A program made the position numbers and the translations under genes. A DNA stretch of 64,000 bases from Acidobacteriota bacterium (GTDB lineage: Bacteria > Acidobacteriota > Vicinamibacteria > Vicinamibacterales > UBA2999), in NCBI GenBank assembly GCA_016192845.1, contig JACPTI010000077.1:14080-78079 (forward strand). Direction: 5' to 3'. Of this stretch, positions 252-41,739 are shown piece by piece. Below the pieces are notes generated by a model, which saw only the letters and a program-made list of their open reading frames with translations, did not search any database and was not told the origin of the DNA. Position 1 is the stretch's first letter. Each line of letters opens with the position of its first letter.

Positions 252-669
252 GTGTCGCCGCCGCGGCTGCGCCGCGACGCGAGCCGTCGAGACGCGCCGA
301 CCAGCGACAGGATGAAAGCGCGAGCAGGCTCTGGGAACCAGCCAAGGGCTCGCCCTTGATATCCCGATGCTGCGGAGCCTCGCCCTTGGCTGGTTGGCAG
401 TATCTGCTCGGCGCGCTCCGCGCGCCTCGGACCGCTATGCGGACCGGCAACGAGTACGAAATTCGCGTTTGGGGCCGCATAGCGGTCCACGGGGTTGAGC
501 CGCCTTCGAATCGCAGCTCGTTGTCAGGGATGTACGTACGCGGTCGCGACGTGCGAGCGACCGCCAGGCGGCGACCCCCGCGTCCAGCGGTCCGCCCCAG
601 CCCGCGCAGCGCTTTCCGGCGCGTCGAGCCGGCTTGCGAAGCGGCGCGCAGCCGCGGCGGCGCAGACAC
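252..669. repeat. Large imperfect inverted repeat enclosing tri-hairpin copy 1
   Basis: Perfect 17-bp core CGCCGCCGCGGCTGCGC (256-272) / GCGCAGCCGCGGCGGCG (646-662). Imperfect pairing extends over about 252-306 vs 610-669. Confidence 0.6.
335..488 (+). repeat. Tri-hairpin dispersed repeat, copy 1
   Basis: AACCAGCCAAGGGC..GCCCTTGGCTGGTT, then GGCAGTATCT, GGCGCGC-tcc-GCGCGCC, then GGACCGCTATGCGG (429-442)..CCGCATAGCGGTCC (475-488). Homologous to 24637-25013 and 41600-41739. Confidence 0.9.
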
Positions 670-701
670 AGCGAGCCGGGCTAAACAGGGGGCCGGTCGG
701 C

Positions 702-1994
702 CTACAGACGGAAGATGTGCGGCGCCTTGACGCCCTTCAGGGCGTTCCGGGTGTCGACGATGAGCGGGAACCGTTCCACCATCGCGCTGTAGCTGAACGC
801 GCGGTGGTTCGTGCAGATGACGGCGCAGTCTACGCCGTCAGTCCGGTCCTCGGGTACCGAACACAGGTTCAGCCCGCCGTGCTGCAGCTTCGGCACGTGC
901 GGGTCCGTGTAACTCAGCGCCGCGCCGCGGCGGTGCAGCAGCTCGAGAATGTCGAGCGCGGGTGACTCGCGGATGTCGCTGACGTCTTTCTTGTACGCGA
1001 CGCCGAACAGATGCACGCGCGAGCCGTTGATCGCCTTGCGCACGGTGTTCAGCGCCTCGCCGATTCGCTCCACGACGTAAGCCGGCATCGACGCGTTGAC
1101 GTGACCGGCCAGCTCGATGAAGCGGCATTCGAATCCGTTCTGCCGCGCCTTCCAGGACAGGTAATGGGGATCGATGGGAATGCAGTGCCCGCCCAGGCCC
1201 GGGCCGGGATAGAACGGCATGAAGCCGAACGGCTTCGTGCTGGCGGCGTCGATCACCTCCCACACGTCGATGTTCATGCGGTGGGACATCAGCGCAATCT
1301 CGTTCACGAGGCCGATGTTCACGGCGCGGAAGGTGTTCTCGAGCAGCTTCACCATCTCCGCCACCTGCGTCGAGCTGACGGCAACGACCGTCTCGATGAT
1401 CGCGCCGTACAGATCGCAGGCGAGCTCGGTGCTCAGCCGGTTCACACCGCCGATCACCTTCGGAATGGTGCGCGTCGTGTAGGTGGGGTTGCCGGGATCG
1501 ACGCGCTCGGGTGAAAACGCGAGGTAGAAGTCGACGCCGGCCTTGAGACCGCCCTCCTCGAGCGCCGGCTGGACCACCTCGTCGGTCGTGCCCGGATAGG
1601 TCGTCGACTCGAGGATGACGAGCTGCCCCGGCCTGAGATGCGTCTTCATGGCATCGACGGCCTGCACGACATACGACAGGTCCGGGTCCTTCGTCTTGCG
1701 CAGCGGCGTGGGCACGCAGATGTCGATCGTGTCCATGTCGCGGAGGTGCGACATGTCGGTCGTCGCCCGCAGCCGGCCCTCGCGCACCGAGGCGGCGATG
1801 TCATCGTCCCTGACGTCGAGAATGTAGCTGCGGCCCGCGTTGATGTCGTCGACCTTGGCCGCGTCGATGTCGAAGCCGGTCACGTCGAAGCCGCGTCTCG
1901 CGAACTCGGAGGCCAGCGGCAGCCCCACGTACCCGAGCCCGATGACGCCCACGCGGGCGGACCGATCGCGAATCTTGTCCTTCAGCGTCGTCAT
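702..1994 (-). CDS. Nucleotide-sugar dehydrogenase (UDP-GlcNAc/UDP-glucose 6-dehydrogenase, WbpA/WecC family)
   Basis: GLGYVG Rossmann motif, CVPTP, LESTTYPG, SPERVDPG, KLLEN, GPGLGGHC, YKKDVSDIRESP. Start set at MTTLK (1994). Confidence 0.92.
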   Translation of the reverse strand: MTTLKDKIRDRSARVGVIGLGYVGLPLASEFARRGFDVTGFDIDAAKVDDINAGRSYILDVRDDDIAASVREGRLRATTDMSHLRDMDTIDICVPTPLRKTKDPDLSYVVQAVDAMKTHLRPGQLVILESTTYPGTTDEVVQPALEEGGLKAGVDFYLAFSPERVDPGNPTYTTRTIPKVIGGVNRLSTELACDLYGAIIETVVAVSSTQVAEMVKLLENTFRAVNIGLVNEIALMSHRMNIDVWEVIDAASTKPFGFMPFYPGPGLGGHCIPIDPHYLSWKARQNGFECRFIELAGHVNASMPAYVVERIGEALNTVRKAINGSRVHLFGVAYKKDVSDIRESPALDILELLHRRGAALSYTDPHVPKLQHGGLNLCSVPEDRTDGVDCAVICTNHRAFSYSAMVERFPLIVDTRNALKGVKAPHIFRL

Positions 1995-2004
1995 GCCTGC
2001 CTGC

Positions 2005-3883
<1,879 letters not shown>

Positions 3884-3926
3884 TCGTGATTCGCGCGCGC
3901 CATCGTACCATTTTTGCGAGACCATC

Positions 3927-5030
3927 ATGGAGACATCCCGGATCGACATGGCCGTCATCGGCGCCGGCGTCGTCGGACTCGCGGCGGCGTGGGCCTTTGC
4001 GCGGCGCGGGCACAGCGTCTGCGTGCTCGAACGCGAGCCGCGCCCCGGGATGGCTACCAGCACGCACAACAGCCAGGTGATCCACGCGGGGATTCACTAC
4101 CCGCCCGGAACGCTGAAGGCGCGCTACTCGGTCGAGGGCGCGCGCATGCTGTACGAGTTCTGTGCCGCGCACGGTGTGCCGCACCGCCGCTGCGGCAAGC
4201 TCACCGTCGTGCAGGACGACCACGAGCTCGACGCGCTCGAGGCGCTCCGGGCGCGCGGCGAAGCGAACGGCGTCGAGGGGCTCCGCCTCGTCGATCGGGC
4301 GTTCGTTCGCGCGAGGGAGCCGCACATCCGCGCGCGGGCCGCGCTCTACTCCCCCAACACCGGCATCATCGAAGCGGAAGCGCTGGTGCGCGCGCTCGTG
4401 AAGCTGTGCGCCGCGCACGACGCCGCGATCCTGTCCGGCACGCCGCTCGTCGCCGCCGGCGCCACCCGCACGGTGCTCGAGCTGCGCACGCCGGCCGAGA
4501 CGATCGCGGCGCGCGTCGTCGTGAACGCGGCCGGACTCTACGCCGACGAGGTGTCCGCGATGCTCGGCGGCGAAGCGTTCCGCGTCTATCCGTGCCGCGG
4601 CGAGTACGCGGAGCTCGTCCCGTCCAAGCGCGGCCTCGTGAACGGCCCGGTTTATCCGCTGCCGCACGCCTCGGGCCATTCGCTCGGCGTGCACCTCACC
4701 AAGACCACGCACGGCAACGTGACGCTCGGCCCGACGTTCGGCTTCCAGGCGCGCAAAGACGACTACGAGGAGAACCGGCTGCCCGTGGAGTCGTTCCTCG
4801 AGCCGGCGCGGGAACTGCTGCCCGAGCTGCGGCTGGAAGACCTGCGTCTCGGCGGCAGCGGGATCCGGCCGAAGCTGCACCCGCCGGAGCAGTCGTTCGC
4901 GGATTTTCTGATCCGGCGCGATCGGCAGTGCCCGCGCCTCGTGCACGCCGCGGGAATCGAGTCGCCCGGCCTGACGGCCTGTCTCGCGATCGGCGAGGCG
5001 GTTGCGACCCTGGCTGCGGAAGTCCTGTAG
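3927..5030 (+). CDS. NAD(P)/FAD-dependent oxidoreductase (L-2-hydroxyglutarate oxidase LhgO-like)
   Basis: IGAGVVG FAD motif, [38 protein letters not shown]. Start at METSR. Confidence 0.88.
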
Positions 5031-5135
5031 GGCTGTGGGCTGTGGGCTGTGGACTCAGGGCTGCGGGCGGGTTGCCACCGTCCGCCCAAAGCCCGAAGCC
5101 AGAAGCCAGGAGCCCAAAGCCTGAAGCCCACAGCC
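5031..5135. repeat. Heptamer tandem array with inverted arms (GGCTGTG)n / (AAGCCCA-like)n between convergent genes; may act as a terminator
   Basis: ggctgtg x3, central hairpin GGGCGG..CCGCCC, then aagcccg aagccag aagccag gagccca aagcctg aagccca cagcc. Confidence 0.85.
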
Positions 5136-5998
5136 TAGTGCCGGTGGTTTCGCAGACGCAGCCAGCACCGCGCCGACAGCAGCGCGCGCGCCAGCAGCCG
5201 GCGCGGCCACGAGTGCGCGGCGACGTGCGTCGCGTAGTACAGGTAGGCGCTCTCGTGGAAAGCCCGAATCGCCGCGGCCCGGGCGTTGCGGCTCGACTGG
5301 CCGACGCGATGGACCGCGGTGGCGCCGGGCACGTACCGGACTTCAAAGCCCTGGCTGCGCAGGCGGCGGCAGAGATCCGCGTCCTCCCAGTAGAGGAAGT
5401 AGCGCTCGTCGAACCCGTGCACGGCGTGCAGCGAGGCGCGGCGCGCCAGGATGCACGCGCCCGACAGCCAGTCGACCTTGACGCTCGTCTTCCCTTTCCG
5501 CACGGCCGCATCGCTGATCACGTTGCGCCTGGAGACCGGCAGGCCCGGCAGCGCGCGGCGCAGCAGCGTCGTGCGCCCGAAGAGGCCCGTGAACATGTCC
5601 GGGTCGCCGCGGGCGTTCCCCTGCTCCGACCCGTCGGGGTCGAGGATGCGCGGGCCGGTCATCGCGCACGTCTCCGAGCGCTCGAGCTCCCGCCGGAGCG
5701 ACGCGAACGCGCCCTCGATGAGCCGGCAGTCGGGATTCATGATCAGCACGAGCGGCCCCGACGTGGCCGCAAGCCCCTGGTTCACGCCCCGTGCGAATCC
5801 GACGTTCCGTTCGTTCCGGAGGAGCCGCACCCGCGGGCCGAACTCGCCGGCGATGTCGCCGCTGCCGTCGCAGGAGGCGTTGTCGACCACGACGGCTTCC
5901 CAGTCGGCGGGGCCGAACTCGCCGGCAATCGACTGCAGGGCGCGCCGGATCTCCATGCCGGCGTTGTAGTTGACCACGATGGCGCTGACGTCCGGCAC
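5135..5998 (-). CDS. Glycosyltransferase family 2 (rhamnosyltransferase-like)
   Basis: VSAIVVNYN, VVDNASCDGS, NVGFARGVN, MNPD, WLSGAC, FDERYFLYWEDADLC. GTG start at 5998. Confidence 0.9.
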   Translation of the reverse strand: MPDVSAIVVNYNAGMEIRRALQSIAGEFGPADWEAVVVDNASCDGSGDIAGEFGPRVRLLRNERNVGFARGVNQGLAATSGPLVLIMNPDCRLIEGAFASLRRELERSETCAMTGPRILDPDGSEQGNARGDPDMFTGLFGRTTLLRRALPGLPVSRRNVISDAAVRKGKTSVKVDWLSGACILARRASLHAVHGFDERYFLYWEDADLCRRLRSQGFEVRYVPGATAVHRVGQSSRNARAAAIRAFHESAYLYYATHVAAHSWPRRLLARALLSARCWLRLRNHRH

Positions 5999-6000
5999 GT

Positions 6001-7002
6001 CTACGACGCCCTCCGCGCCAGCCCCGCGTCGAAGCGCTTCTCGCGCGCTTTCGCCGCCAGCCAGCGCCGCTCGAGGTGCGCCTCGATCGCGCGCACGGGC
6101 ACGCGTCTCGTGCGCTGCACCGCGGCGCGCTTCCGCCACACCTGCGGCAGGCCGGCGACCGCCGCCGCCTTCGCTCTGAGAAACGTCCCGAGCAGGCCGA
6201 ACCGCGCGAAATGCGCCGCGCCCGCCGCGTTGTAGAGCAGGTGACCCGGGAGCGTCCGTGCGAGCAGCCCCGCGGGCGTGTTCTTCAGATAGAGCCACTC
6301 CAGGTTCCGCTGCCCGTGAAACACCGCGAACGCGCTCACCCGGCCGATCGTCGCGCTTCCATGATGCCGGACGAGGGCGTCGGCAACGTACCGGCAGCGG
6401 TACCCCCGGAGCCGGGCGCGATACGACAGATCGACGTCCTCGTGGGAGGCGAAGAAATCCTCGTCGAAACCGCCCAGCTCGTCGAACACCGCTTTCGAGA
6501 TCAGGCAGGCGGCACCACAGACGCCGAACACTTCTGCGGACTCGGCCGCAAGATGCGCGGGAGCGCCGTGATGGCGCTTGAACGCTCCGCCCCACCGGAA
6601 GAGCCCGTCGCCGGCGCTGTCGACAATCGCCGGATCGTGCATGTACACAATGCGCGAGGTGGCGAGGAGGAAACCGGTCTGCGGATCGATGCCGTCGCGC
6701 AGCGTCCGCAGCCACCGCGGGTCGGGGATGGTGTCGTTGTTGAGGAACGCCACGAAACGGCCACGGGCCTCCCGCGCCCCGGCGTTGTTGCCTCCGGCGA
6801 AGCCGCAGTTCTCCCGCAGCGCGACGATCCGGACGCGGGGAAACCGCGCGCGCACGAAGTCGACGGTCCCGTCGGTGGATGCGTTGTCCACGAGGATGAT
6901 CTCGGCGTCGATCCCCTCCTGGACCGCGACGGCCTCGAGGCACGGCTGGAGGTACTCCCGGCCGTTCCAGGTGGCGACGACCACCGACACTTCAGGCAAC
7001 AC
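6001..7002 (-). CDS. Glycosyltransferase family 2
   Basis: VSVVVATWNG, VDNASTDG, GFAGGNN, LNND, GGFDEDFFASHEDVDL. Confidence 0.9.
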   Translation of the reverse strand: MLPEVSVVVATWNGREYLQPCLEAVAVQEGIDAEIILVDNASTDGTVDFVRARFPRVRIVALRENCGFAGGNNAGAREARGRFVAFLNNDTIPDPRWLRTLRDGIDPQTGFLLATSRIVYMHDPAIVDSAGDGLFRWGGAFKRHHGAPAHLAAESAEVFGVCGAACLISKAVFDELGGFDEDFFASHEDVDLSYRARLRGYRCRYVADALVRHHGSATIGRVSAFAVFHGQRNLEWLYLKNTPAGLLARTLPGHLLYNAAGAAHFARFGLLGTFLRAKAAAVAGLPQVWRKRAAVQRTRRVPVRAIEAHLERRWLAAKAREKRFDAGLARRAS

Positions 7003-8134: not shown

Positions 8135-8139
8135 CGAGC

Positions 8140-8216: not shown

Positions 8217-8220
8217 CCAG

Positions 8221-8280
8221 ACACAGAGACACAGAGGACAATTCTATTTTCTTTTCCTCTGTGTCTCCGCGTCTCTGTGG
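8221..8280. repeat. CACAGAGA-type inverted repeat with AT-rich loop
   Basis: ACACAGAGACACAGAGGA..TCCTCTGTGTCTCCGCGTCTCTGTG. The loop contains a minus-strand TAGAAT (8241-8246). Confidence 0.7.
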
Positions 8281-22854: not shown

Positions 22855-23973
22855 TTACGCCGGAGCCGCGGCGGGGATGCCGGTGCGAATGACGTCCGCG
22901 ACGATCTCGATCTGCCGTTCCGTCAGCTCCGGGAACATCGGCAGCGACAGCACCTCGGCGGCCAGCCGCTCGGCCACGGGAAAGTCGCCGCGGCGGTAGC
23001 CCAGATCGCGGTAGGCGGGCTGGAGGTGCACGGGAACCGGATAGTGGACGGCCGTCTGCACGCCGGCGTCGGCGAGCCGGGCCTGCAGCGCGTCGCGCCG
23101 CGCCGCGCGGACCGCATAGACGTGAAACACGTGGCGCACGCCGTCGCGAGCGCGCGGCACCGCCACGGCGGTGTCGCTCAGGCACCGGGCGTACGACGCC
23201 GCATGCGCGCGCCGCGCCTCGGTCCAGCGCTCGAGATGGCGCAGCTTCACCTCGAGCACGGCGCCCTGCAGACCGTCCATCCGGTAGTTGAAGCCGCGCA
23301 CCGCGTGCGTATACCGCGTCTGCTCGCCCCAGCTCCGCAGGAGCCGGACGCGCGCCGCCAGCCCGGGATCGCTGGTCACGACAGCGCCCCCCTCGCCGCA
23401 GGCGCCGAGATTCTTGGTCGGATAGAAGCTGAAGCAGCCGAGCGTGCCCATCGATCCGCACCGGCGGCCGCGGTAGTCCGCGCCGTGCGCCTGGCACGCA
23501 TCCTCGACGACGGCGATCCCGCGGCGGCCGGCGATCTCGAGAATCGGATCCATGTCGGCGGGCTGGCCGTAGAGATGAACGGGGACGATCGCCGTGGTCC
23601 GCGGCGTGACGGCAGCCTCGAGGCGTGCCGGATCCATCGTGCAGTACGTGTCGTCGACATCCACGAACACCGGCTTCGCGCCCGCGCACTCGATGGCGGC
23701 GACGGTCGCGACGAAGGTGAACGGCACCGTGATGACCTCGTCGCCCGGCGATACGCCCGCCGCCAGCAGCGCCAGGTGCAGCGCGCTCGTGCCGCTGTTG
23801 ACGCCAACCGCTTCCGCGGCGCCGCAGTACGCCGCAAACGCCCGCTCGAAGCTCGACACCGCCGGCCCCAGCGCACACTGCCCGCTGTCGAGGACACGCT
23901 CCACGGCCGCGTCGATGTCGGCCTTGATCGACCGGTACTGGGCCTGGAGGTCGACGAGCGGAACGCGGGTCAT
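22855..23973 (-). CDS. DegT/DnrJ/EryC1/StrS PLP-dependent sugar aminotransferase
   Basis: VNSGTSAL, PVHLYGQ, EDACQAHG, FSFYPTKNLG, LSLPMFPEL. Start at MTRVP. Confidence 0.95.
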   Translation of the reverse strand: MTRVPLVDLQAQYRSIKADIDAAVERVLDSGQCALGPAVSSFERAFAAYCGAAEAVGVNSGTSALHLALLAAGVSPGDEVITVPFTFVATVAAIECAGAKPVFVDVDDTYCTMDPARLEAAVTPRTTAIVPVHLYGQPADMDPILEIAGRRGIAVVEDACQAHGADYRGRRCGSMGTLGCFSFYPTKNLGACGEGGAVVTSDPGLAARVRLLRSWGEQTRYTHAVRGFNYRMDGLQGAVLEVKLRHLERWTEARRAHAASYARCLSDTAVAVPRARDGVRHVFHVYAVRAARRDALQARLADAGVQTAVHYPVPVHLQPAYRDLGYRRGDFPVAERLAAEVLSLPMFPELTERQIEIVADVIRTGIPAAAPA

Positions 23974-24632
23974 ACCTTCTCCAGCACGAGCACGCGCCCC
24001 TTCTTGCCCCAGTCCATTCGGGCCTCCAGGTCGGGCCGCGACCGGCATCCCTCGAGGACGAACAGCAGGCGCAGCAGGTCCTTGTTGAGGAGCGTGATGT
24101 GCGTCGGATCGACGTCGAACTGCGTGGTGAAGTCGAGCAGGCTCGCCGGTTGCGGATGGAAGCGCGTGGTGACGTAGATGAACTTCGAGGTCATGCGGGC
24201 CATGTTGGCGACCGCCTGCCGCACCTGGAGCACGGTCAGGTGCTCGAGCACTTCGCGACAGACGACCAGGTCGTACGCGTTGGCCGGCTTGAGCGTCGGG
24301 TCGGTGACCTGCCCGATGGTGATGCGATCGCGCACCTCCGGGGTGGCCAGGCGCCTGCTGCTCTCGGCGAAGTCGATCCCCTCGACGTCGACGCCGATCT
24401 CCCAGAGCAGGTGCATCAACGCACCGGGGCCGCAGCCGAGGTCGAGCACCTTCTCCGGCTGGAACACCTCCTTGATGAGAAACGGGTTCTTCGCCTCGAT
24501 CCGGCGCCGCGTCTCCAGCGAGTAGTTGTTGCCTTCGGCGCGCCAGTCGCCCGTCCAGTACTCGGTGTCGTAGTGCCCGGACGCGACGGCCTGCTGCTCG
24601 TGCACCCGCGCTTCAAACTCGTGGATGTTCAT
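23970..24632 (-). CDS. Class I SAM-dependent methyltransferase
   Basis: VLDLGCGPG, GID, YDLVVCREVLEHL. Confidence 0.88.
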   Translation of the reverse strand: MNIHEFEARVHEQQAVASGHYDTEYWTGDWRAEGNNYSLETRRRIEAKNPFLIKEVFQPEKVLDLGCGPGALMHLLWEIGVDVEGIDFAESSRRLATPEVRDRITIGQVTDPTLKPANAYDLVVCREVLEHLTVLQVRQAVANMARMTSKFIYVTTRFHPQPASLLDFTTQFDVDPTHITLLNKDLLRLLFVLEGCRSRPDLEARMDWGKKGRVLVLEKV

Positions 24633-24636
24633 CTTC

Positions 24637-25013
24637 GGACCGCTATACGGCTCCTATTTCCTGACACCGGTTGCGTTGGCGCAGTCGTGGCGCGAATCCG
24701 GCTCCGGTCGCCGGACCGCGCTGCGAGGACGCTGCAGGCCGCTGGCCGGCCAGCTCCGTGAGCTGGCCTGGTCCCCCGAGTCTTCTCGCGCGGTCGGGCG
24801 ATCGGGATCGGCGACCTCCGAACGGTTTCGCGCCACAACTGCGCCAACACAACGCCCGGGGGATTAACGAAGATCTTGTAACCGCTCCGCGTCCTGAGGT
24901 CCGAGCCGTATAGCGGTCCTAGGCGCGCGGAGCGCGCCAAGCAGATACTGCCAACCAGCCAAGGGCTCGGCTCGCACACAACGGGATATCAAGGGCGAGC
25001 CCTTGGCCGGTTC
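24637..25013 (-). repeat. Tri-hairpin dispersed repeat, copy 2, with a ~250-bp expanded loop
   Basis: Perfect 17-bp IR GGACCGCTATACGGCTC (24637-24653) / GAGCCGTATAGCGGTCC (24903-24919), followed by GGCGCGC-gga-GCGCGCC, CAGATACTGCC and the CCAAGGGCTCG..CGAGCCCTTGG hairpin. Confidence 0.9.
24670..24853. mobile_element. MITE-like palindromic insert with 31-bp terminal inverted repeats
   Basis: 24670-24700 vs 24823-24853 match at 28/31. Further internal pairing. No convincing ORF. Absent from the loops of copies 1 and 3. Confidence 0.55.
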
Positions 25014-25444
25014 TGCTGCTCGGCAAACTGCTCGAGGATCCGGCTGGAGGAGTCGAGCACCGTATCCAGATAGACGATCTCGATGCCGTGCTCGCGGCAG
25101 ATGGCGACCTGCTCGGCCGGCAGCCGCCCGTCCCAGTCCTTCCCCTTCACGTAGTAGCGCGGCTGAAGCTCGCGCAACACGGTTTCCGTGTCGAACGGGT
25201 TGACGTGCGTGTATGTGATGTATCGGATGGCATCGACGATCGCCGCACGCTGGTCTTCCGGCAGCAGCGGCGGGTGCTTGGTCCGCACGTACTCGTCGCA
25301 CGCGACGTTGCACAGGAGCGGCACGCCCAGCGCGGCCGCCGCCCGGAAATACTCGATATGGCCGCGGTGCAGCGGATCGAAGGCGCCGTCCACCATCGCG
25401 ACGCGGCCCCGGTACGCCTTGAGCGCCTCGAACGCGACGATCAC
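24989..25444 (-). CDS. Cytidylyltransferase, HIGH family (TagD/RfaE domain II-like)
   Basis: DGAFDPLHRGH, YVKGKDW, DSSS. GTG start overlaps the upstream stop. The last codons are supplied by the repeat. Confidence 0.85.
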   Translation of the reverse strand: MIVAFEALKAYRGRVAMVDGAFDPLHRGHIEYFRAAAALGVPLLCNVACDEYVRTKHPPLLPEDQRAAIVDAIRYITYTHVNPFDTETVLRELQPRYYVKGKDWDGRLPAEQVAICREHGIEIVYLDTVLDSSSRILEQFAEQQNRPRARP

Positions 25445-30959: not shown

Positions 30960-32185
30960 AGCCGGGCGTCCACGCGCCCACCCGTCAGGAGGCTGCCGGC
31001 GTTTGCCGGATCGAGCGCCCGCAGGTCCGTGACGGCGAAGCGGCCGGCGTCGAGCTTGTGGTACGCGCGCATCGCGACCGCGATGTGGGCGTGCAGCCAC
31101 TGCGGGTCGACGAACATCGCCGCCGTATCGACGCCGAGCCGCGGTGCGAGCCAGGTGATGCTGCCGCACGTCCCGACGAATGCGCGCGCGCCCGCGGCAA
31201 CTTGCGTCTGCACTCCGAGATTCGTCTGCGGCGTCATCCAGGGGCGGGCGCTGATGACGTCGGCGCCGCCGAATCGGTAATCGGCGTGGTCGTCTGCGAG
31301 GAGGAGGCCCGTGTCCAGCAGCACGACCGGCAGGCGCTCAGCGAGACTCGAGACGATGCTCCTGAGCACGCCCCGGATCTGCGGCGTGTCGGGGAGCGAC
31401 TGCGCGCCGTAGAACTTCACCGCGACGTACTCCCGCGGCAGGAGTGCCGGGTCGATCATCGGGGTCGCGGCGTGCGTCGTGAACCGCGTGTGCGCGTCGA
31501 CAAACCCCATCGCCCGGTGCCCGGACCAGTACAGCGTGAACAGCCGGTACATGAGTCCGGGGTGAATGACGTCGAACTCGCGGGTCCCGAGGTGCCGGGC
31601 AACGGCCACGAGGATGTCGGCGTCGAGCGGCGACGGCTCGACATGTTTGGTCATCCCCCGCTCGGCGTTGCGCCGCGCGAACTCGGCCGGCTCGACGTGA
31701 TCCCAGATCTCCACGTAGCGGGATGCCACGCCCTGATACCAGCTGGCCACGCCGCCGCGTGAAACGGCGACCAGACGATCCTCCGGCAGCCTGAACGCGG
31801 CTTTGACCCAGTGGAGGAACGGCACCCAGTACAGCGTCTCGAATCCCACCTCCGAGATCCACGGCCCTGCGACGAGCAGGCGTCCGCGTCCGACGATCGT
31901 TTCGAGCTCTCCTTCGACGTCCCACGTGGCGCGAAAGAAGCTCCATTGCTCCTCGAGCTGACGCTTCCGCCGGAGTGCGGTGCGGACGGGGCGCCGCACG
32001 CGGCGGAACCAGCGCTTCGCGAGATTCACGACATCGTCGCGAACGCCCTCGCCGGCGCGGCGGACGGCGTGACGCGCATCCGTGATCCCTTCCTGGCCCA
32101 CCTTGACCCCCCACCGGAGGCGACCGGCGACCTGCCGCAGCCGCTTGCGCGCGAGGTTGCGCGCCGCGGTCTGCCAGCCCGTCAC
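30956..32185 (-). CDS. Uncharacterised module-B protein with an Arg-rich N-terminal extension
   Basis: GPWISEVGFETLYWVPF, SRGG..SWY, IHPG, YVAVKFY, NLGVQ, FVGTCGS. Confidence 0.78.
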   Translation of the reverse strand: MTGWQTAARNLARKRLRQVAGRLRWGVKVGQEGITDARHAVRRAGEGVRDDVVNLAKRWFRRVRRPVRTALRRKRQLEEQWSFFRATWDVEGELETIVGRGRLLVAGPWISEVGFETLYWVPFLHWVKAAFRLPEDRLVAVSRGGVASWYQGVASRYVEIWDHVEPAEFARRNAERGMTKHVEPSPLDADILVAVARHLGTREFDVIHPGLMYRLFTLYWSGHRAMGFVDAHTRFTTHAATPMIDPALLPREYVAVKFYGAQSLPDTPQIRGVLRSIVSSLAERLPVVLLDTGLLLADDHADYRFGGADVISARPWMTPQTNLGVQTQVAAGARAFVGTCGSITWLAPRLGVDTAAMFVDPQWLHAHIAVAMRAYHKLDAGRFAVTDLRALDPANAGSLLTGGRVDARL

Positions 32186-34845
32186 GTCCGGACACCCTCC
32201 AGGACCGGCGAGGCGATGCCAAAGCCCAGTCGCACGACGTCAACCGCCCGGATATCGAGCTCGACGAAGGCGCCGCACCGGAGGCCCGAGAAGACGCGCT
32301 TGGCCACCTCGAGGTGATCGAAGCGGAAGCCCGAGGCGTGGGAGTAGAACGCGATCGTGCCGGTCCCGGCGAGCGGCGCGAGATAGCAGAAGCCGCCGTA
32401 CGTGCCGACGAACGCCTGCGCGTGCCGGATGACCTGCGTCTGCACCGCCAGGTTGTCGATCGGGCGCATCAGGTGGTCGATCGTGTGGATGCGCCCCCTG
32501 AGGTCGGACGGGAAGTCGTCGTGGTCGTCGTACCGATCGGCCGTGTTGAGCAGCACCACGTCGATGTGCTGCGCCAGGTCCGCGAGAAACCTCGCCGCAA
32601 ACGCCCTGTTCGCCGCCGTCGGCGGCAGCGCGACGTTACCGTAGAACTTCGCGGCCACATAGCGCGCCGGGAGCTGCCCGCGCAGCGCGAACGGTTCCAT
32701 CGGCGGCAGCGGTGAGAAGCTGGTGAACGTCTCGACGATCGTGACCGGCGCGCGCTGAAACCAGAACTGCTCGAAGAGCCGGTACATCGTGGACGGGTGC
32801 AGGATCTCGGCCCCGCGGAGCCCCCGTGCGGCGGTCACCCGCGCGATGATCTCCCGGTCGAAGCTCGACACGTCGAGGTGCTTCATCCGGCCGGACTGCT
32901 CTGCAATCCGCTCCTCGTTCCGCCGGCGGAACTGCTCGGGCGTGTAGTACGACAGGATGTCTTCGTAGTTGGCCGTCAGGTGCGAGTACCACGGCGCGGC
33001 CCCGCCGCGCGAGATGACCACGAGCCGCTCCGGATCGAAGTTGCCGTACGTCTTGGCCCAGGCGAGAAACGGAATCCAGTAGAGGAGCTCGAAGCCGGTT
33101 TCCGAGAGCCACGGCCCGACGAGAATCGGCTTGTCGCTCCGGCCGAGCAGCGTGACGAGCTCGCGCGTCTCGAGGGCCTCGGGGACGTCCCAGACCCACG
33201 ACCGTTTGGCCGGATCGCGGTGCCGCCCGGGCTTCGGCGTCAGCGCCGACGGTGGAGACGGCGCCACCACGCCCGGGCGCTTCGACCCGAGCTGCCGGAT
33301 GGCGAACCGCTTCAGGTCCCCCAGCACGCGGCGCTTCCACACCCTGTAGTCCTTGCGGATGCGACTGCGGAGGTGCTTCCACCACAACTGCGCGGGCGTG
33401 CGCAACGCGACGAGCGCGACGGCCGGGTACAGCGGCACGCGCAGGAGGAATTCCCTCCAGCCGAGGCGCTCAGGCGCCGGCGCCGGCGCCGCCACGACCC
33501 GCTCGAGCGCATCGACGAACTGCGGCGTCGCGGCGACCTCGGCCCCGAGGGGACGCACGAACATCACGGCGAAGTCGCGTGACTGCGAGTCGATCTCCCC
33601 CTCGCCGCGCAGGGAAGCGGCGAGCAGCCGCGCGTGCTCGTCGAGCGACCGCGCGGCGCGCAGCAGGCCCGCGAGAAGGTACCGGAAGTGGAGCGTGCCT
33701 TCCTGATTTCTGGTTGAGATTTCCGGCACCAGCACGGTATGCGCCGGTCTGCCGATGACCGCGGCCTCGAGGAACGCGCTCGTGTTCAGCCCCACGACCG
33801 CGGCGCTGTAGTAGATGGAGTCGAAGTAGTCGTCTTTCGCCTCGGCGTCGACCGGATGAGCGCCCCAGAACGCCACGTTCCGGTAGCCGGTGAGGTCGAC
33901 CCCCTGCCACTCCTTCAGGCGGGCCGGGTGCGGCCGCACGAGAATCCCGATGTCCTTCAGGCGCGGGTCGTCGCTCGATCGCAGCGTTTCGATCCAGTCG
34001 AGGACGAACGAAGGCTCGTCGGCCGTGTTGTGGAAGAGCGCCGAGCAGACGTACAGCACGAACGGCCTGTCCGAAGGGAGTCCGACGCGCTCGCAAAAGA
34101 CCTCTCGGCTGCGTGACGGACGGCGCCCCCACCACTGGTCGTAGCACTGCGCGCCGGTGACGATGATTTTCTCCGCAGGCACACCGTGCATCTCGATCGC
34201 CTCGGTGCGCTGCACGTTGTTCCACACGATCACCGCGTCGGGTACGAAGCGCAGCAGCGACTTCGTCGAGAGGTGGTCCCAGCTGCAGACCGGGAGCACG
34301 GTGCGCGTGCCCAGCACCTTGGCGGCGCGCACGTGGTCGATCTGCGGCGATCCAAGGTCGACGAGCGGCGTGACGAGCACGGCATCGGGCTGATGCGCCG
34401 CAATGAACTCCTCGGTCGCCTTCATGCGCGGGAGCGCGCGCTCGAGCGCGCGGAGGAGGCGCGCCAGCCGCTGGCGGCCGCGATCGCTCCCGAAGAACGA
34501 CAGCGTGAGGAGCGCGAGCACCACACGCGGCGTCCGCTGCCGGGCGCGCGCCAGCAGGTGCGGCGTGGTCGCATAGAGCGGTTCGAGGTAGCGCAGGTAA
34601 TCGAGCCCGTGACGGATCCGCCGCGTCAGATCGAACCAGGGGCCGACATGCCGGGCCGGTGACTCGCCCATCGAGAGCTGCTCGGGATACCGCGCCACGA
34701 GCCGCTCGATCATCTGCCGGCCGCCCATCGATTCTTCGACGTCGGCGGCCATGTGCACGCGGTGGCCGCGCCGGGCGAGATCCTCGATGGCGGCCTCGAA
34801 GTTGCGCAGGTACGACCAGTGGCGGGCAAAGAACAGCAGCTTCAT
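32182..34845 (-). CDS. Module A + module B fusion (887 aa)
   Basis: N-terminal SWDHLSTK/RPHP domain. C-terminal GPWLSETGFELLYWIPF domain. Confidence 0.82.
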   Translation of the reverse strand: MKLLFFARHWSYLRNFEAAIEDLARRGHRVHMAADVEESMGGRQMIERLVARYPEQLSMGESPARHVGPWFDLTRRIRHGLDYLRYLEPLYATTPHLLARARQRTPRVVLALLTLSFFGSDRGRQRLARLLRALERALPRMKATEEFIAAHQPDAVLVTPLVDLGSPQIDHVRAAKVLGTRTVLPVCSWDHLSTKSLLRFVPDAVIVWNNVQRTEAIEMHGVPAEKIIVTGAQCYDQWWGRRPSRSREVFCERVGLPSDRPFVLYVCSALFHNTADEPSFVLDWIETLRSSDDPRLKDIGILVRPHPARLKEWQGVDLTGYRNVAFWGAHPVDAEAKDDYFDSIYYSAAVVGLNTSAFLEAAVIGRPAHTVLVPEISTRNQEGTLHFRYLLAGLLRAARSLDEHARLLAASLRGEGEIDSQSRDFAVMFVRPLGAEVAATPQFVDALERVVAAPAPAPERLGWREFLLRVPLYPAVALVALRTPAQLWWKHLRSRIRKDYRVWKRRVLGDLKRFAIRQLGSKRPGVVAPSPPSALTPKPGRHRDPAKRSWVWDVPEALETRELVTLLGRSDKPILVGPWLSETGFELLYWIPFLAWAKTYGNFDPERLVVISRGGAAPWYSHLTANYEDILSYYTPEQFRRRNEERIAEQSGRMKHLDVSSFDREIIARVTAARGLRGAEILHPSTMYRLFEQFWFQRAPVTIVETFTSFSPLPPMEPFALRGQLPARYVAAKFYGNVALPPTAANRAFAARFLADLAQHIDVVLLNTADRYDDHDDFPSDLRGRIHTIDHLMRPIDNLAVQTQVIRHAQAFVGTYGGFCYLAPLAGTGTIAFYSHASGFRFDHLEVAKRVFSGLRCGAFVELDIRAVDVVRLGFGIASPVLEGVRT

Positions 34846-34897
34846 CCAGGTACTCCAGCGATTTCCGCGGGCCGAGTCGCCATCGCCGTGGGGCCGG

Positions 34898-36745: not shown

Positions 36746-37671
36746 AGCGCGCGCTCCGCCTGCACACGGGCCAACCGGCCGTCGCCGATGAACCCGCTCG
36801 CCCCGTCCCACTCGGCCACGTGACGGACGTGTCCCATCGCGACGCCCGCATCCGCGACGGCCTGGCGAAACCGTCTCTGCGCGTCGCTCTCGCGCCACCC
36901 GGTGCGAACGCCCTCCACCATCTCCCCTACCGCGGCGGTGATCTCGGCCGCGCTCGTCGCCCGGTAGCCGTAGTTGCGGGAGTTGCGGAAGTAGCGTTCG
37001 GTCAACAGCTCCTGAATCGCCAGCGGACGGCCGGTGTCGAGATCGACGGCCGTGGCCAGCGTGAAGATGCCATCTCGCCGCACCGGATAGGCCGTGAACG
37101 CGTCGTGAGCGTCGATCCGCAGCGACGGGGTATGGCCGATCAACGCGGCCTGCTGCAGCTCGGCGCTGCTGCAGACCACAAACGCGCTGGTCAGGAGCAG
37201 GTACAGGTCGAGCACTGGCGTTCGGCGGGGGTCTGACGCCACGTCCAGCACATCCCGGCCGCGCAACGGTCCCGCCACGGGGTTGCCGATGCGCACGATC
37301 CGGAAGCCCTCGGCAGACAGGCGCTCGATGGCGTCGGACAACCGGTCGGCGCGCTGCCCTATTTCGACCGTGACAATCGGTTGTCCCGGCACGATTCCAC
37401 ACTCCATCGCGAGCCGGCGGCCGCGCTGCTCGTCATCCGCAGACAGCCGGGTCGGAGCCGCATCGGCGAGCGCCCGCCGATTCCAGCGCGGCACGACGCC
37501 GCGCTGTTCTTCGACCGCAGACCGGCGGAGCGCGCGATCCGCCGCGTGGCGCAGGCGCACCCGGATCTGGTACGGCAGCCGCTCGTCGCCGGCCTGCCGC
37601 CGCAGCTCGCGGTGCCACTCGCGCCAGAACGACGCGGCGAGCACGTGCAGGCGCGGGTATTTCGCCGACAC
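36742..37671 (-). CDS. Putative glycosyltransferase (resembles the TIGR04372 family)
   Basis: GFRIVRIG, DLYLL..AFVVCSS, TSAAEITAAVGEM pattern. Adjacent to a TIGR04371-like methyltransferase. GTG start at 37671 follows the upstream stop. Confidence 0.55.
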   Translation of the reverse strand: MSAKYPRLHVLAASFWREWHRELRRQAGDERLPYQIRVRLRHAADRALRRSAVEEQRGVVPRWNRRALADAAPTRLSADDEQRGRRLAMECGIVPGQPIVTVEIGQRADRLSDAIERLSAEGFRIVRIGNPVAGPLRGRDVLDVASDPRRTPVLDLYLLLTSAFVVCSSAELQQAALIGHTPSLRIDAHDAFTAYPVRRDGIFTLATAVDLDTGRPLAIQELLTERYFRNSRNYGYRATSAAEITAAVGEMVEGVRTGWRESDAQRRFRQAVADAGVAMGHVRHVAEWDGASGFIGDGRLARVQAERAL

Positions 37672-37673
37672 GA

Positions 37674-39833
37674 TCAGGGTGATGGCGAGCCGCCGGAACC
37701 GCGAAGCCCGAGCCGGTGCGTGAGCATCAGCACCTCGTACACCGCGCGGCGCGCCGCGCGGCGCATCCGTCCCCTCGCCGTCCTGGCGCCGACGAGCGTG
37801 TTGTAGACCGCGTGATGGTAGTAGTGCTTGATCTGCTTCTTCAGCCAGAACAGCCGGCTGATCGCGCGGCCGAGCGCATGCGACGTCTCCGTCTTGCGGA
37901 AGTGCCGCCATCCGTAGGTGACCTGGTACCGCAGGAGCATCCCCACCCATTGCCGCCGCGTGAGGTTCAGAAAACGGTGGTTGCGGGCCACGTACTCACG
38001 CCAGAGCACGAAGATGTGCTGCAGCCACGGCGGCCAGGAAAACCAGCGCGGCATTGCGTCCGGCAGCATCAGCGTCGTCGCCTGCCGTTCGATGCTGGTG
38101 CCGTTGGACTGCCGCCGCGACCAGAGCACCTCGCGCACCTGGCGGATGCGGCCCTGCAGCGTGAGCTCGGCGACGAGCAGCCGATCGGGGCGCAGCACCG
38201 GCCGGAAGATGCCGGCCCGCTGAAGCGCATCGAGCCGCATCAGCCCGTACACCATGTCGCCTGCGCCTACGCCTTCGCGGCAGAGGTGCTTCCACCTGGC
38301 GTCAAGGTCCACGTACGCGGCGGTGTCGAACAGACGGGGACCTTTGTCGATCTCCTGCCCGTTCGGCAGCACGCGTCGGGTCACCGGATAGGCGAGTACG
38401 GTCCCCGCATCGGAGTCGAGTTCCGCGACGAGCCGTTCGAGCCACCGCGGATGCCACCAGTCGTGGTCGCTCACCCACGCGAAGTACTCCGCGGAGGGCC
38501 ACTCCCGCGCGGCCGTTTCCGCGACCTCGCGCCAGGTGGCAATCATCGCCTGCCGCTCTGCGTGTCTGATGTACCGCAGGCGGCGGTCGCGCTCGACATA
38601 TCGCCGCGCGATCGCCTCGGTGTCATCCGTCGAGGCGTCGTCCAGCATCAGGAGCGCGAAATTCGAGTACGTCTGCGCCAGCAGCGACTCCAGCGCGTGC
38701 GGCAGCCGTCGCGCGTTGTTGTACAGCGTCATCCCGAGCACGACGCGAGGGCTGCCACCGGCCGCGGTGGACGCCGTCGGGCGTGGCACAGCGGCAACGC
38801 TACGCCGACGGAACGCCGGGGCGAGCCGTCCGACCAGGTGCCGGTACCTCGGTTCGGCGGAAGCGTAGGGTCTGGAGGGCGTCTTGGGCGGCCGCTTCAC
38901 CGCACTTATGTGGTCGGTCTCGAGGACGGCCACCTCGGTGAGATCGTAGGAGTCCGAAAGGGCCAGACTGACGCTCGTCAGCTGCGCGTTGTACGGGGAG
39001 CGCTCGCGATTCAAGCTGTACAGCAGGGGGCAACCGGCCGTCGCCGCCATGGACGCATACCCGCGCACCTGCGCGTCGGTCATCTCCTGAAACGACGCAA
39101 CGTTGATCGTCAGGTCCAGCGACAGCACGGAGGCGAGGCGGCACAGGAAGTTGGGCACGAACACGAAATCGGCATCGCGCCAGCCGTCGACCGCCGACGT
39201 CTCGGACGTGCCCGCGAACAGCAGCCGTGCGTCGGGAAACACGACGCCGAGGTAGGTTGCCGAGAACAGGAACAATTCCGGCAGATCGACGATGACGTAC
39301 GTTGCGCGGGGAAAGAGGGTCCTGAACTGATACGCGAAGCCGCCCCACCCCGCGCCGATCTCGCAGACGACGGGCCGATCGAGCCCTCGGACGGCGTCCA
39401 GCACGCCGCCACGCTCCATGCCGATGAGCACCTCGTAGAACTTCAGTGTGTCGACGTTGAGCAGACGCCCATCGATCGGGTAGCCGAACCCGCCGAGTGC
39501 CGGCGACTCCGGCACGAGCAGGCTGTCGCCGCCGATGGCACGCAGCGCCTGCAGGCGCGCCTTGAAGTGCTCCCGGCGGCCGTCGCGCTTGTTGCGGTAA
39601 TCGTACGGGCGCACGCTCGTGATGTGGTAGGCATGGTGGCGGAGCTTGTTCACGATGAGCGGCGAGGCGTCGATCATGTACTCGATGTACTCGATGTACT
39701 CGAGCTCTTCCGCCCAGTACGCGCTCGGCCTTCCCTCCGCGCTGCCCGCGCCGGCGCGCGTCATGGCCAGCACGGCGTCCCGTGCACGCAGGTAGGACTG
39801 GAATGCTGCTGCCGCCCTCAGGTCCTCCGTCAC
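37674..39833 (-). CDS. Sugar O-methyltransferase-like domain (module C) + GT2 domain (module D) fusion
   Basis: PSAYW, EIGAGWGGFAYQF, VDLPE, INVASFQEM, then PRVVLGMTLYN, DDAS.D, EYFAWVSDHD. GTG start at 39833. Confidence 0.82.
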   Translation of the reverse strand: MTEDLRAAAAFQSYLRARDAVLAMTRAGAGSAEGRPSAYWAEELEYIEYIEYMIDASPLIVNKLRHHAYHITSVRPYDYRNKRDGRREHFKARLQALRAIGGDSLLVPESPALGGFGYPIDGRLLNVDTLKFYEVLIGMERGGVLDAVRGLDRPVVCEIGAGWGGFAYQFRTLFPRATYVIVDLPELFLFSATYLGVVFPDARLLFAGTSETSAVDGWRDADFVFVPNFLCRLASVLSLDLTINVASFQEMTDAQVRGYASMAATAGCPLLYSLNRERSPYNAQLTSVSLALSDSYDLTEVAVLETDHISAVKRPPKTPSRPYASAEPRYRHLVGRLAPAFRRRSVAAVPRPTASTAAGGSPRVVLGMTLYNNARRLPHALESLLAQTYSNFALLMLDDASTDDTEAIARRYVERDRRLRYIRHAERQAMIATWREVAETAAREWPSAEYFAWVSDHDWWHPRWLERLVAELDSDAGTVLAYPVTRRVLPNGQEIDKGPRLFDTAAYVDLDARWKHLCREGVGAGDMVYGLMRLDALQRAGIFRPVLRPDRLLVAELTLQGRIRQVREVLWSRRQSNGTSIERQATTLMLPDAMPRWFSWPPWLQHIFVLWREYVARNHRFLNLTRRQWVGMLLRYQVTYGWRHFRKTETSHALGRAISRLFWLKKQIKHYYHHAVYNTLVGARTARGRMRRAARRAVYEVLMLTHRLGLRGSGGSPSP

Positions 39834-40804
39834 GCGTCCTCCCGGGAGAACGTTTCGGCCGGCGGAGGCTCGGCCGCAGTGTACGGGGGCAGATCGCGCG
39901 TGTCGACCCGTGGCAGCTCGTACCGGTTCTCGCGGCCCGGCTTCACGCGGCGGCGGACCGTGTTGAATGCGAGCGAATAGCCCGACTCGCGCAGGATGCG
40001 CAGCGTCTCGCGCGTGTAGGTGTGCGGCCCCCCCCAGGGGTAGCAGAACGGAACCGTGGCCTGTCCCGTGAGGGCGCGGATCCACGCGACACCGGGACGG
40101 AGCTCGTCCTCCTGCTCGCCGGGCGAGAGGCGCGCGAGCATGCGATGGCTCCGCGTGTGGTATCCAAACGTCATCCCTGCAGCGGCCATCTCCTGAATCA
40201 TCCCGGGATTCAGGTACAGGCGCCCGGCGAACGCCGCCGAATCCCCGATGTAGCGCGTGAACAGCTCTTCCAGCACGCGCTCGGCCTCGGTGAACGGCAA
40301 CTGGTGGCTGACGAAGTGCTTGATGGCGCGGTCGTTGTCATCCTCCCACGGAGCCACGCCGAAGACCTCGGGGCCGGCCGCACGGGGGATTCCCGGCGCA
40401 GCGCAGGCCTGGAGCAACGCGCGGCTGAATGCCTCCACACCGAGACGCGCGAGCAGCAGCTGCACCTTGTGAACGGCAAGCAGCCGCGGCGACGTGCCGC
40501 AGGCGTCCTGCGAGAGGAAGAACGTGCCGCGCAACCCTCGGGCGCGCAGCAGCGGCAGCACGGTGTCGTAATGGTCGATCAAGCCGTCATCGAACGTCAG
40601 GAGGACCGCATTCGGTGGCAGACTCTCCTCGCGGTCGAGCGCCGCCTCGAAGCGCCGCAGGTCGATGACCGTGTACTGTCCCTGCAGCCAATCGAGCTGC
40701 CGATCGAAGAGTACCGGTGCAAGCGCGCGAATGTCGGGAAACGCCGTCGCCGCGCTGTCCCGCACGTAGTGATACATCACCACGAGGCACGTGTGGCCGC
40801 TCAC
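39830..40804 (-). CDS. Polysaccharide deacetylase (CE4/NodB-like)
   Basis: VMYHYVR, LLTFDDG, GYHTRSH..L, FCYPWG, LPRVDT. GTG start at 40804. Confidence 0.9.
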   Translation of the reverse strand: MSGHTCLVVMYHYVRDSAATAFPDIRALAPVLFDRQLDWLQGQYTVIDLRRFEAALDREESLPPNAVLLTFDDGLIDHYDTVLPLLRARGLRGTFFLSQDACGTSPRLLAVHKVQLLLARLGVEAFSRALLQACAAPGIPRAAGPEVFGVAPWEDDNDRAIKHFVSHQLPFTEAERVLEELFTRYIGDSAAFAGRLYLNPGMIQEMAAAGMTFGYHTRSHRMLARLSPGEQEDELRPGVAWIRALTGQATVPFCYPWGGPHTYTRETLRILRESGYSLAFNTVRRRVKPGRENRYELPRVDTRDLPPYTAAEPPPAETFSREDA

Positions 40805-41598
40805 GCTCGGCGCCCTTTCATGACGACGAGCGAGAGCAGCGCATCGCGTGCGGCCTTGTTGCGAAGATAGTTGGCAATCATCCCGGTCTCGAAGTTCGTG
40901 TAGAGGCGGCGTACTGCCGCCGCCGAGAAGTCCGCGCGTTTGTACACACACCCCTCGCCGGTCTGCGCGACGGCATCGACGCCGCCGGCGCCCAGGGCGA
41001 GTGCTGCGTCGCCGAGCGCGCGCGCGGCGGCGACGATCGCCTTGTTCCCGATGTCATGCGGACCGTCGCCGGCACGAATGTCCGGCCTCACGTGGGCGAT
41101 GATCGGACCGGTATCGACGCCTGCATCGAGAAAATGAATGGTCGCGCCGCAGTACTCCGGCTCGCCATTGACGAGGGGCCAGAAGTTGGTCCCCGCGCCG
41201 CGGTAGTACGGGGAGAGGCCGAGGTGGATGTTGATGATGCGTCCGGGAAAGCTGTCGATCATCGGCCGCTTCAGCAGGCCGGTCCCAAACACCAGCACGA
41301 CGTCGGGCTCGAAGCGGCGCATCACCGCGATCTCGTCCGGGTCGTTGCAGCCGCCCGCCGCCACCTGCCGCGACGGCGGCCCGACACCGGTCGCGCCGGT
41401 GAAGTAGGCCTCCTCGGACGCGTCGCGGTCCGCAAAGTGAAGCCTGATCACGCAGGCGTCCTCGTCCGACGCCGCGTATTTGAGCGGATCGAACGCCTTC
41501 TGCTCGCGCCACACGCAGGCAACCTCGAGCCGCGACGCAAGACTGTTCGCCACGTACATGTGGCGTCGGAGAGCACTGGTCAGCACAATCGCCCGCAT
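40801..41598 (-). CDS. Formyltransferase (N10-formyl-THF dependent)
   Basis: INIHLGLSPYYRG, GATIH, GVDTG. Start at MRAIV. Confidence 0.9.
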   Translation of the reverse strand: MRAIVLTSALRRHMYVANSLASRLEVACVWREQKAFDPLKYAASDEDACVIRLHFADRDASEEAYFTGATGVGPPSRQVAAGGCNDPDEIAVMRRFEPDVVLVFGTGLLKRPMIDSFPGRIINIHLGLSPYYRGAGTNFWPLVNGEPEYCGATIHFLDAGVDTGPIIAHVRPDIRAGDGPHDIGNKAIVAAARALGDAALALGAGGVDAVAQTGEGCVYKRADFSAAAVRRLYTNFETGMIANYLRNKAARDALLSLVVMKGRRA

Positions 41599-41599
41599 T

Positions 41600-41739
41600 G
41601 GACCGCTATGCGGCTCGATGCGCGAATTCTGTACTCGTTGTGGCCCGCATAGCGGTCCTAGGCGCGCGACGCGCGCCAAGAGATACTGGCGGCCAGCCAA
41701 GGGCTCTGCCGGGACATCAAGGACGGAGCCCTTGGCTGG
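41600..41739 (-). repeat. Tri-hairpin dispersed repeat, copy 3
   Basis: GGACCGCTATGCGG (41600-41613)..CCGCATAGCGGTCC (41645-41658), GGCGCGC-gac-GCGCGCC, AGATACTG, CCAGCCAAGGGCTC..GAGCCCTTGGCTGG. Fills the intergenic gap to within 1 bp on each side. Confidence 0.9.

Follow-up and report, generated by a model that had tools for sequence, protein, structure and literature searches.

The window analysed here is a stretch of 64,000 nucleotides (nt) from the genome of an Acidobacteriota bacterium of the order Vicinamibacterales, and it contains three copies of a short non-coding element that is built of three hairpins. The element very probably represents a genome-wide family of interspersed repeats of the Vicinamibacterales and a non-autonomous mosaic mobile element. 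Reading of the window sequence confirmed the starting observation of an earlier, sequence-only reading, namely that three stretches carry the same three hairpins in a fixed order. Each copy opens with a hairpin A whose arms, CCAGCCAAGGGC...GCCCTTGGCTGG, are identical in all three, followed by a linker carrying CAGTATCT and a 7-bp GC hairpin (GGCGCGC-NNN-GCGCGCC), which are likewise common to the three copies, and by a third hairpin, B (GGACCGCTATRCGG ... CCGYATAGCGGTCC). Hairpin B occurs as ...CTATGCGG/CCGCATAG... in copies 1 and 3 and as ...CTATACGG/CCGTATAG... in copy 2, and this A/T versus G/C difference is compensated between the copies, as had been proposed.

Copy 1 is a full element on the plus strand (336..489; nhmmer match C24:14409-14571, model positions 8-182), made up of hairpin A (338-393), the linker (394-409), the GC hairpin (410-426) and hairpin B (429-488). 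Its orientation is antisense with respect to the minus-strand genes on its flanks. Copy 2 (24637..25012, minus strand) and copy 3 (41599..41740, minus strand) are full elements in sense orientation, the former within a minus-strand sugar operon and the latter between the TGA of the upstream gene and the ATG of a formyltransferase gene. Copy 2 is not a plain copy, since its hairpin B loop holds a nested insertion of about 210 nt (24656..24865, approximate bounds, minus strand) that belongs to a second, low-copy repeat family. This insertion folds as a long hairpin at -138.5 kcal/mol, and the contigs of other element copies skip it. The second family consists of a hairpin of about 190 nt with the arms GGCGTTGTGTTGGCGCAGTTGTGGCGCGAA / TTCGCGCCACGACTGCGCCAACGCAACC, and its relatives were found at C33:6718-6876 (79% identity over 161 nt), on C85, C96 and C141, and at window positions 91-138.

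According to our own gene calls, copies 2 and 3 are located inside a run of minus-strand genes that extends from window position 5135 to beyond 64000. Pfam families in this run point to enzymes of sugar-nucleotide and polysaccharide metabolism, including a DegT aminotransferase, epimerase/dehydratase, GT2, deacetylase, methyltransferases, cytidylyltransferases and a formyltransferase. Copy 2 is directly followed by a methyltransferase gene (23970..24632, minus strand; Methyltransf_23/25/11, E 1.6e-12), its 3' end lying 4 nt ahead of the ATG (24632), and is preceded by a cytidylyltransferase-like gene (24989..25444, minus strand; CTP_transf_like, E 4.9e-14). The last eight codons and the stop of the latter gene are contained in copy 2, with the TGA (24991-24989) placed in the hairpin A loop, in the motif CCCTTGATATCCC. 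Copy 3 occupies the space from the TGA (41743-41741) of a 571-amino-acid gene that ends at its 5' edge (41741..43456, minus strand; no Pfam family) to the ATG (41598) of the formyltransferase (40801..41598, minus strand; Formyl_trans_N, E 8.5e-18), with 1 nt to spare on each side. The N terminus of the formyltransferase, MRAIVLT, is kept in relatives without the element. The coordinates and Pfam matches agree with the earlier statements that the two copies end 4 nt and 1 nt before the start codons of a methyltransferase and a formyltransferase and that copy 2 gives the upstream gene its stop codon. A Shine-Dalgarno motif was detected at 29% of our crudely called starts compared to 12% in a control window, a difference that is too rough to use. 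In the polysaccharide cluster, three minus-strand genes of 571, 887 and 1078 amino acids (41741-43456, 32182-34845 and 46365-49601) had no Pfam family at E 1e-5.

The element is not limited to the three copies of the window, and its description as a three-copy element did not hold. The genome, referred to as G000, is a 4.5 Mb draft in 153 contigs with 67.8% G+C and 92% completeness. A first DNA search gave 41 scored matches among 179 candidates, and an nhmmer search with a profile of 24 full copies yielded 167 hits that correspond to 102 non-overlapping loci. These comprise 39 full elements of about 140-180 nt, 20 loci with just hairpin A, either alone or joined to the linker and GC hairpin, 25 with just hairpin B and 18 that are otherwise truncated. 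The modules (hairpin A; linker with GC hairpin; hairpin B) are also found singly, with edges at the feet of the hairpins. The 15 best-scoring full copies have a mean identity of 88.7% over the whole length, and the 3' 110 nt are nearly uniform, with few differing positions among 15 aligned copies. The edges of the element are sharp, AA|CCAGCC at the 5' and GGTCC|AA at the 3' side; AA is present at both junctions in most copies, and the information content is zero outside AA..AA. No terminal inverted repeats were found when the 5' end (AACCAGCC) was compared with the reverse-complemented 3' end (TTGGACCGC), so that the inverted repeats of the element are its internal hairpins. The element has no coding capacity. 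Tandem middle modules were absent among 80 aligned copies, in which only a short duplication of hairpin A was seen, in five copies.

Over the whole window, Rfam gave no match at the gathering score, so the search proposed in the earlier reading connected the element with no described RNA family. Below the threshold only noise of the microRNA-hairpin kind was obtained, the best hit on copy 1 being a microRNA-precursor model with 29.8 bits against a threshold of 91. The base pairing was evaluated on a structure of 36 pairs in 80 non-redundant full copies from the genome itself, from the congeneric genome G001 and from metagenome-assembled genomes (MAGs). Of the cells of this structure, 95.8% were paired compared to 92.2% in shuffled alignments, none of the 500 shuffles reaching the observed value, and the pairing dropped to 28-40% when the partners were slid by one to three columns. 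Changes on both sides were found at 12 of the 36 pairs versus 6.7 ± 1.2 in the shuffles. Examples are a pair in hairpin B (G-C 41, A-U 31, G-U 6), one in hairpin A (C-G 67, U-A 10) and one in the GC hairpin (G-C 73, C-G 6). The covariation noticed between the window copies is therefore real and exceeds chance in the larger set, although the alignment cells are not independent events because the copies form subfamilies, and although the MAG copies were retrieved by means of a pattern in which the GC hairpin and the 5' arm of hairpin B are fixed.

The fold does not distinguish the two strands. Whole elements fold at -85.1 kcal/mol in sense and -85.4 kcal/mol in antisense, and the sense strand was the more stable one in 39 of the 80 copies; the structure therefore does not favour an RNA over a DNA role. 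A strand-specific structure was considered, as the pairs predicted with RNAalifold included 17 G-U versus 7 A-C combinations, and was rejected given the strand-neutral folds of the whole element; it is further weakened by A-C mismatches being commoner on the sense strand (51 vs 22).

The family was also found in related bacteria, with a patchy distribution. Among 40 relatives, the element was matched in G001, G002, G007, G009, G011, G014, G021 and G023, all of the same family, and the hairpin B part in two other families. A search across the Vicinamibacterales, in which two candidates were scored per genome, gave matches in 15 of 301 genomes belonging to 6 of 19 families, the f18 count including the unpublished genome G300. 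An exact-pattern scan of contigs with one genome per species recovered at least 114 stretches, and among the 80 loci listed from it 77 come from MAGs labelled Acidobacteria, Acidobacteriota or Vicinamibacterales. The remaining three of those listed are in MAGs labelled Bifidobacteriaceae (two) and Gemmatimonadaceae (one) (L037, L073 and L069), for which mis-binned contigs or transfer are possible. In G007, from another genus, at least 40 copies were found, some of them 96% identical to copy 1, whereas the orthologous genes beside copy 3 are 73% identical. In a narrow literature search (Vicinamibacter repetitive elements; acidobacterial miniature inverted-repeat transposable elements) we found no published description of the element or of the repeat content of the Vicinamibacterales. 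The titles on acidobacterial miniature inverted-repeat elements did not concern it, and one of the papers (PMC11602168) refers only to phages of Acidobacteriae.

Comparison of orthologous positions, a check suggested in the earlier reading, revealed filled as well as empty sites. The junction of copy 3 is filled in G001, a genome of the same genus with 88% identity over 1.2 kb, whereas neither G003, likewise of this genus (...GACTGATGGCGATGCGC...), nor G023 has the element there. At the junction of copy 2, no full copy is present in G001 and G003, where the two genes overlap by ATGA; G001 retains about 20 nt resembling the 5' end of the element, and this site may therefore have lost a copy. 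When G000 copies with both flanks were mapped into 1 Mb of G001, the nearest relative, 2 of 11 were filled there, while none of the eight mapped G002 copies was filled in G000, and for several G001 copies the site is empty in G000. At one further locus, on contig C105, a copy that seemingly consists of hairpin B only turned out to be the orthologue of a full G001 copy with an internal deletion of 42 nt. Contigs assembled from four DNA runs showed depth spikes at the copies between 23800 and 42500, and those of two runs bridge copy 3; no empty allele was seen in the contigs of the four runs over this interval.

One copy, on contig C3, is itself split by an unrelated insertion sequence (IS). This IS (G000:C3:180-2416) encodes a 581-amino-acid DDE transposase, has inverted repeats of its own (CCCACTTTCCGCAGGTCA) and a duplication of 6 bp (CTATAC), and is inserted in the 5' arm of hairpin B.

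The stop/ATG gap that holds copy 3 contains unrelated hairpin repeats in G007 and G009. The one in G009 (locus L154) is an example of intergenic hairpins whose arms consist of tandem 7-nt units, for instance GTTGTCR repeated and then YGACAAC repeated, with the unit differing by locus. G000 has 851 period-7 arrays; 153 pairs of arrays form inverted repeats, 149 of these pairs being intergenic. The 7-nt-unit hairpins often stand directly after stop codons and beside many element copies (e.g. C6:16124-16266 and C1:19194-19289). We know of no description of hairpins with such arms.

The number of loci, the empty orthologous sites, the patchy distribution and the occurrence in another genus of copies far more alike than the genes beside them all argue for a mobile element that does not encode its own mobility. 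A group of observations weighs against this interpretation, concerning the mode of transposition, the placement of the copies and the conservation of two of them. With regard to the first, no clean target duplication was found in the pairs of empty and filled sites, which at 75-92% identity are too diverged to resolve 1-2 bp. Neither a mobilising enzyme nor a full-length parent was found, and no gene lies between an A end and a B end in G000 or among the matches listed for five copy-rich relatives, these genomes being drafts. Mobilisation by an IS91-type rolling-circle mechanism, with GAAC/CAAG-like flanks as the lead, was rejected, as only two Y2 transposase fragments were detected, away from any copy.

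Hairpins at both ends, together with the lack of terminal inverted repeats and of an evident target duplication, are also what would be seen if the element were of the REP/REPIN or IS200/IS605 type and were moved as single-stranded DNA by a tyrosine HUH transposase (RAYT, TIRYT or TnpA) acting on the two end hairpins. G000 has two Y1_Tnp (RAYT-like) genes, on C80 and C134, and acidobacteria have been reported to carry RAYT-like 'TIRYT' genes with repeat families of their own (Di Nocera et al., 2013; PMC3733652). However, the repeats around both Y1 genes (GGGGTCAGACCCCGGTGA; GGTCCGGCTAAAGCCGGAC...GTAC) are unrelated to the element, contrary to the idea that it might flank a RAYT or other transposase gene, and one Y1-flanking pair carries a GGGGWSAS-type motif as described for TIRYT genes in the same paper. 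At the hairpin feet, the consensus of the 80 copies shows neither a GTAG nor a CGTC tag. Across 41 genomes the presence of Y1 genes did not correlate with that of the element: the copy-rich G021 (85% complete) has no Y1 hit, while the element-free G004 and G008 have three each. Movement by such a transposase is thus distinctly unlikely. The two RAYT/TIRYT-like genes themselves (G000:C80:47968-48879 and G000:C134:3915-4745, both minus strand; loci L145 and L146) are surrounded by inverted palindromes, namely GGGGTCWGACCCCGGTGA clusters and GGTCCGGCTAAAGCCGGACGCTACGTAC.

The placement of the copies was determined with our own crude gene caller (3900 genes covering 86.6% of the genome), which limits the weight of what follows. 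Of the 79 loci with two called neighbours, 56 are between co-directional genes, 29 in sense and 27 in antisense orientation, 16 between divergent and 7 between convergent genes. For full copies there is no enrichment in the convergent setting; only 1 of 35 is found there compared to a baseline of 14.4% (p 0.03), and the corresponding counts of 3/34 in G007 and 3/35 in the MAG loci are not significant on their own. Orientation matters at tight junctions, where both gaps are 15 nt or less: 12 of the 29 sense copies in G000 occupy such a position compared to 1 of the 27 antisense copies (Fisher p 0.001), and in G007 3 of 12 compared to 1 of 11. Similarly, at 14 of 24 loci the end of a sense gene is no more than 15 nt from the 5' edge or up to 32 nt into the element, and an antisense gene ends equally near the 3' edge at 6 of 34 (p 0.002); the same comparison in G007 gave 12/17 and 2/14.

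A part of this bias follows from the sequence of the element, which stops sense frames sooner. A stop is encountered within 15 codons by 42% of incoming sense frames and by 17% of antisense frames, and 25% versus 50% remain open through the whole element. An asymmetry of the target was considered as a sole cause, if AA is the target, and rejected: AA outnumbers TT at tight junctions by merely 195 to 92 (2.1 to 1), which therefore predicts a bias of only about 2 to 1. Three other possibilities were rejected as well. A frame reading from stop to start was not consistent among the 22 copies whose 3' edge has an ATG, as the upstream in-frame stop lies at varying places. For an outward promoter or leaderless start, no sigma-70-like site was present in copy 3 or in a young copy, the TATAGC of the 3' arm lacking the final T. 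A terminator was limited to one weak site of five pairs in copy 3, with none in the young copy.

The excess over the 2 to 1 expected from the target would be accounted for if the host had adopted some copies, including copies 2 and 3, as structured RNA spacers that act in cis within operons and work only in sense orientation. Such a spacer could be a processing or stabilising structure or a device that uncouples or sets downstream translation. The conservation of the two shared copies points in the same direction. Copy 3 is identical at 135 of 141 positions (95.7%) between G000 and G001, compared to 502 of 600 and 531 of 599 in its flanks (p 0.0005), and this resembles codon positions 1 and 2 of the neighbouring gene (188 and 190 of 200 identical, 94-95%) and not position 3 (155 of 200, 77.5%). 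The C105 copy is identical at 117 of 120 positions (97.5%), with 522 of 600 and 509 of 587 in the flanks, and since the pair shares private variants, conversion from other copies is unlikely here. A decaying selfish insert should not be conserved to this extent, judging from these alignments, and the two pairs, which were chosen by their survival, provide the best evidence that some retained copies may matter to the host. The other hairpin repeats that other genera hold at the stop/ATG junction of copy 3 are consistent with such a role, as is the gene past the 3' end being on the same strand at 35 of 44 MAG loci, although the MAG gene calls are noisy and the downstream-gene bias in G007 is not significant (22 to 14, p 0.24). 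However, the orthologous pairs number only two, at 9 of 11 and at 8 of 8 mapped sites only one of the two congeners carries the element, sense and antisense copies are equally frequent over all co-directional contexts (29 to 27 in G000 and 12 to 11 in G007), the fold energies of the strands are alike and no consistent open frame bridges the stop and the start. Taken together, we regard adoption as an RNA spacer as unlikely.

A more elaborate version combines adoption with mobility: the family would be spread by a hairpin-reading enzyme of a kind not so far connected with such repeats, and the host would have domesticated a subset as RNA modules that depend on orientation and lie between cistrons. 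These would be inserted in sense, exactly from stop to start, in sugar-pathway operons, would be kept by purifying selection and would decide what becomes of the downstream cistron, with no Shine-Dalgarno motif involved. This combination is unlikely.

Conservation of sequence, together with a fold that is symmetric between the strands, would likewise be seen if the copies were duplex-DNA binding sites for a host protein, for example a factor of the nucleoid or of DNA topology, an idea put forward for BIMEs, with the RNA being of no importance. The GGCGCGC-NNN-GCGCGCC hairpin and the flanking CAGTATC barely vary, five of the seven pairs being invariant, and conservation in the consensus of the 80 copies extends to the loop motifs CCCTTGATATCCC and ACGAGTAC..AATTC. 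The invariance of the central hairpin is in part forced, because the pattern by which the MAG loci were retrieved includes it. Moreover, the patchy distribution and the fast turnover of sites are unlike a housekeeping role, and no protein candidate was found. We consider a function as protein-binding sites highly improbable.

The interpretation that we prefer, a mobile element without genes of its own, suggests the following course of events. An enzyme provided in trans would copy the element as DNA and probably read its hairpins, given the absence of terminal inverted repeats and of a clear target duplication. Copies would persist only at positions where they are harmless. A sense element would end an incoming reading frame fast and be tolerated directly against a stop or start codon, and these two properties would explain the exact fit of copies 2 and 3 between cistrons. 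Expression of the operon would be affected, if at all, only as a by-product, with a few retained copies as possible exceptions.

The sequence-only reading had proposed an undescribed structured RNA or non-autonomous mobile element that may tune expression inside the operon. Its mobile-element part is supported by about 100 loci, by empty orthologous sites, by the patchy distribution and by copies of about 96% identity next to genes of about 73% identity in another genus. Its operon-tuning RNA part is not, given the strand-symmetric fold, the lack of a promoter-like site, the single weak terminator-like site and the lack of conservation at most sites. The outcomes that the reading had named as refuting it did not occur: neither an Rfam nor an IS-end family was matched, the covariation persisted in the larger alignment and an orientation bias was present at tight junctions. 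An RNA role may apply to the few sense-oriented intercistronic copies that are retained and unusually well conserved.

The Vicinamibacterales are abundant, barely cultured bacteria of soil and groundwater, and the family has practical consequences for their genomes. It breaks assemblies, with 10 loci within 50 nt of a contig end. It rewrites gene ends, as copy 2 substitutes the last codons and the stop of a gene, and it parts genes that overlap by ATGA in relatives and therefore affects annotation and the reading of operons. Additionally, the tolerance, in one orientation only, of a hairpin block of 150 nt directly before a start codon offers a natural test.

Several known repeat families invite comparison. 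Correia and NEMIS elements are MITEs (transposable elements of the miniature inverted-repeat kind) with terminal inverted repeats and a parent IS. Our element is like them in size and copy number, in being non-coding, in being polymorphic for its insertions and in its possible transcription together with neighbouring genes. In contrast to MITEs, it is without terminal inverted repeats, a proven target duplication or a parent IS sharing its ends. BIME and REPIN are composed of palindromic extragenic repeat units of the REP kind. The element shares with REP, BIME and REPIN the palindromic units arranged in mosaics, the extragenic dispersal, the lack of an evident target duplication and stems that are kept palindromic. 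A REP is described by Di Nocera et al., 2013 as a palindrome of 20-40 nt tagged by GTAG or CGTC (PMC3733652), whereas the units found here are longer, with hairpins of 55-75 nt and conserved loops, and untagged. Unlike in REP/REPIN-RAYT systems, the RAYT-like genes of this genome are flanked by other repeats and not by the element.

Mycobacterial interspersed repetitive units (MIRU) have been described to carry small open frames bridging two genes and to form tandem arrays (as summarised in Delihas, 2011; PMC3184786). As in that description, the element is found between the cistrons of operons, has ends overlapping neighbouring genes and contains G-C-rich inverted repeats; a MIRU-like sense placement with ends at the stop and start is seen in a subset only (12/29 sense vs 1/27 antisense). 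Unlike MIRU as presented there, it has no consistent bridging frame and occurs as single copies, overall in both orientations.

BOX (boxA-boxB-boxC), RUP and SPRITE of Streptococcus pneumoniae are enriched between convergent genes according to Table 1 of Croucher et al., 2011 (PMC3049150). Full copies of our element are at or below the convergent baseline of 14.4% (1/35, 3/34 and 3/35), in contrast to these three families, and a variable tandem number of the middle module, by which BOX is characterised, is absent here; the element is set apart from BOX by this description and not by the BOX sequence. BOX, RUP and SPRITE are like the element in being short, non-coding and intergenic with extensive secondary structure, in being restricted to one lineage, judged parasitic and without a sure transposase, and in being able to modify gene ends. 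The BOX modules recur in different combinations, as do those found here with 39 full, 20 A-only and 25 B-only loci. In its behaviour the family resembles BOX, BIME and MITE, and it belongs to none of them.

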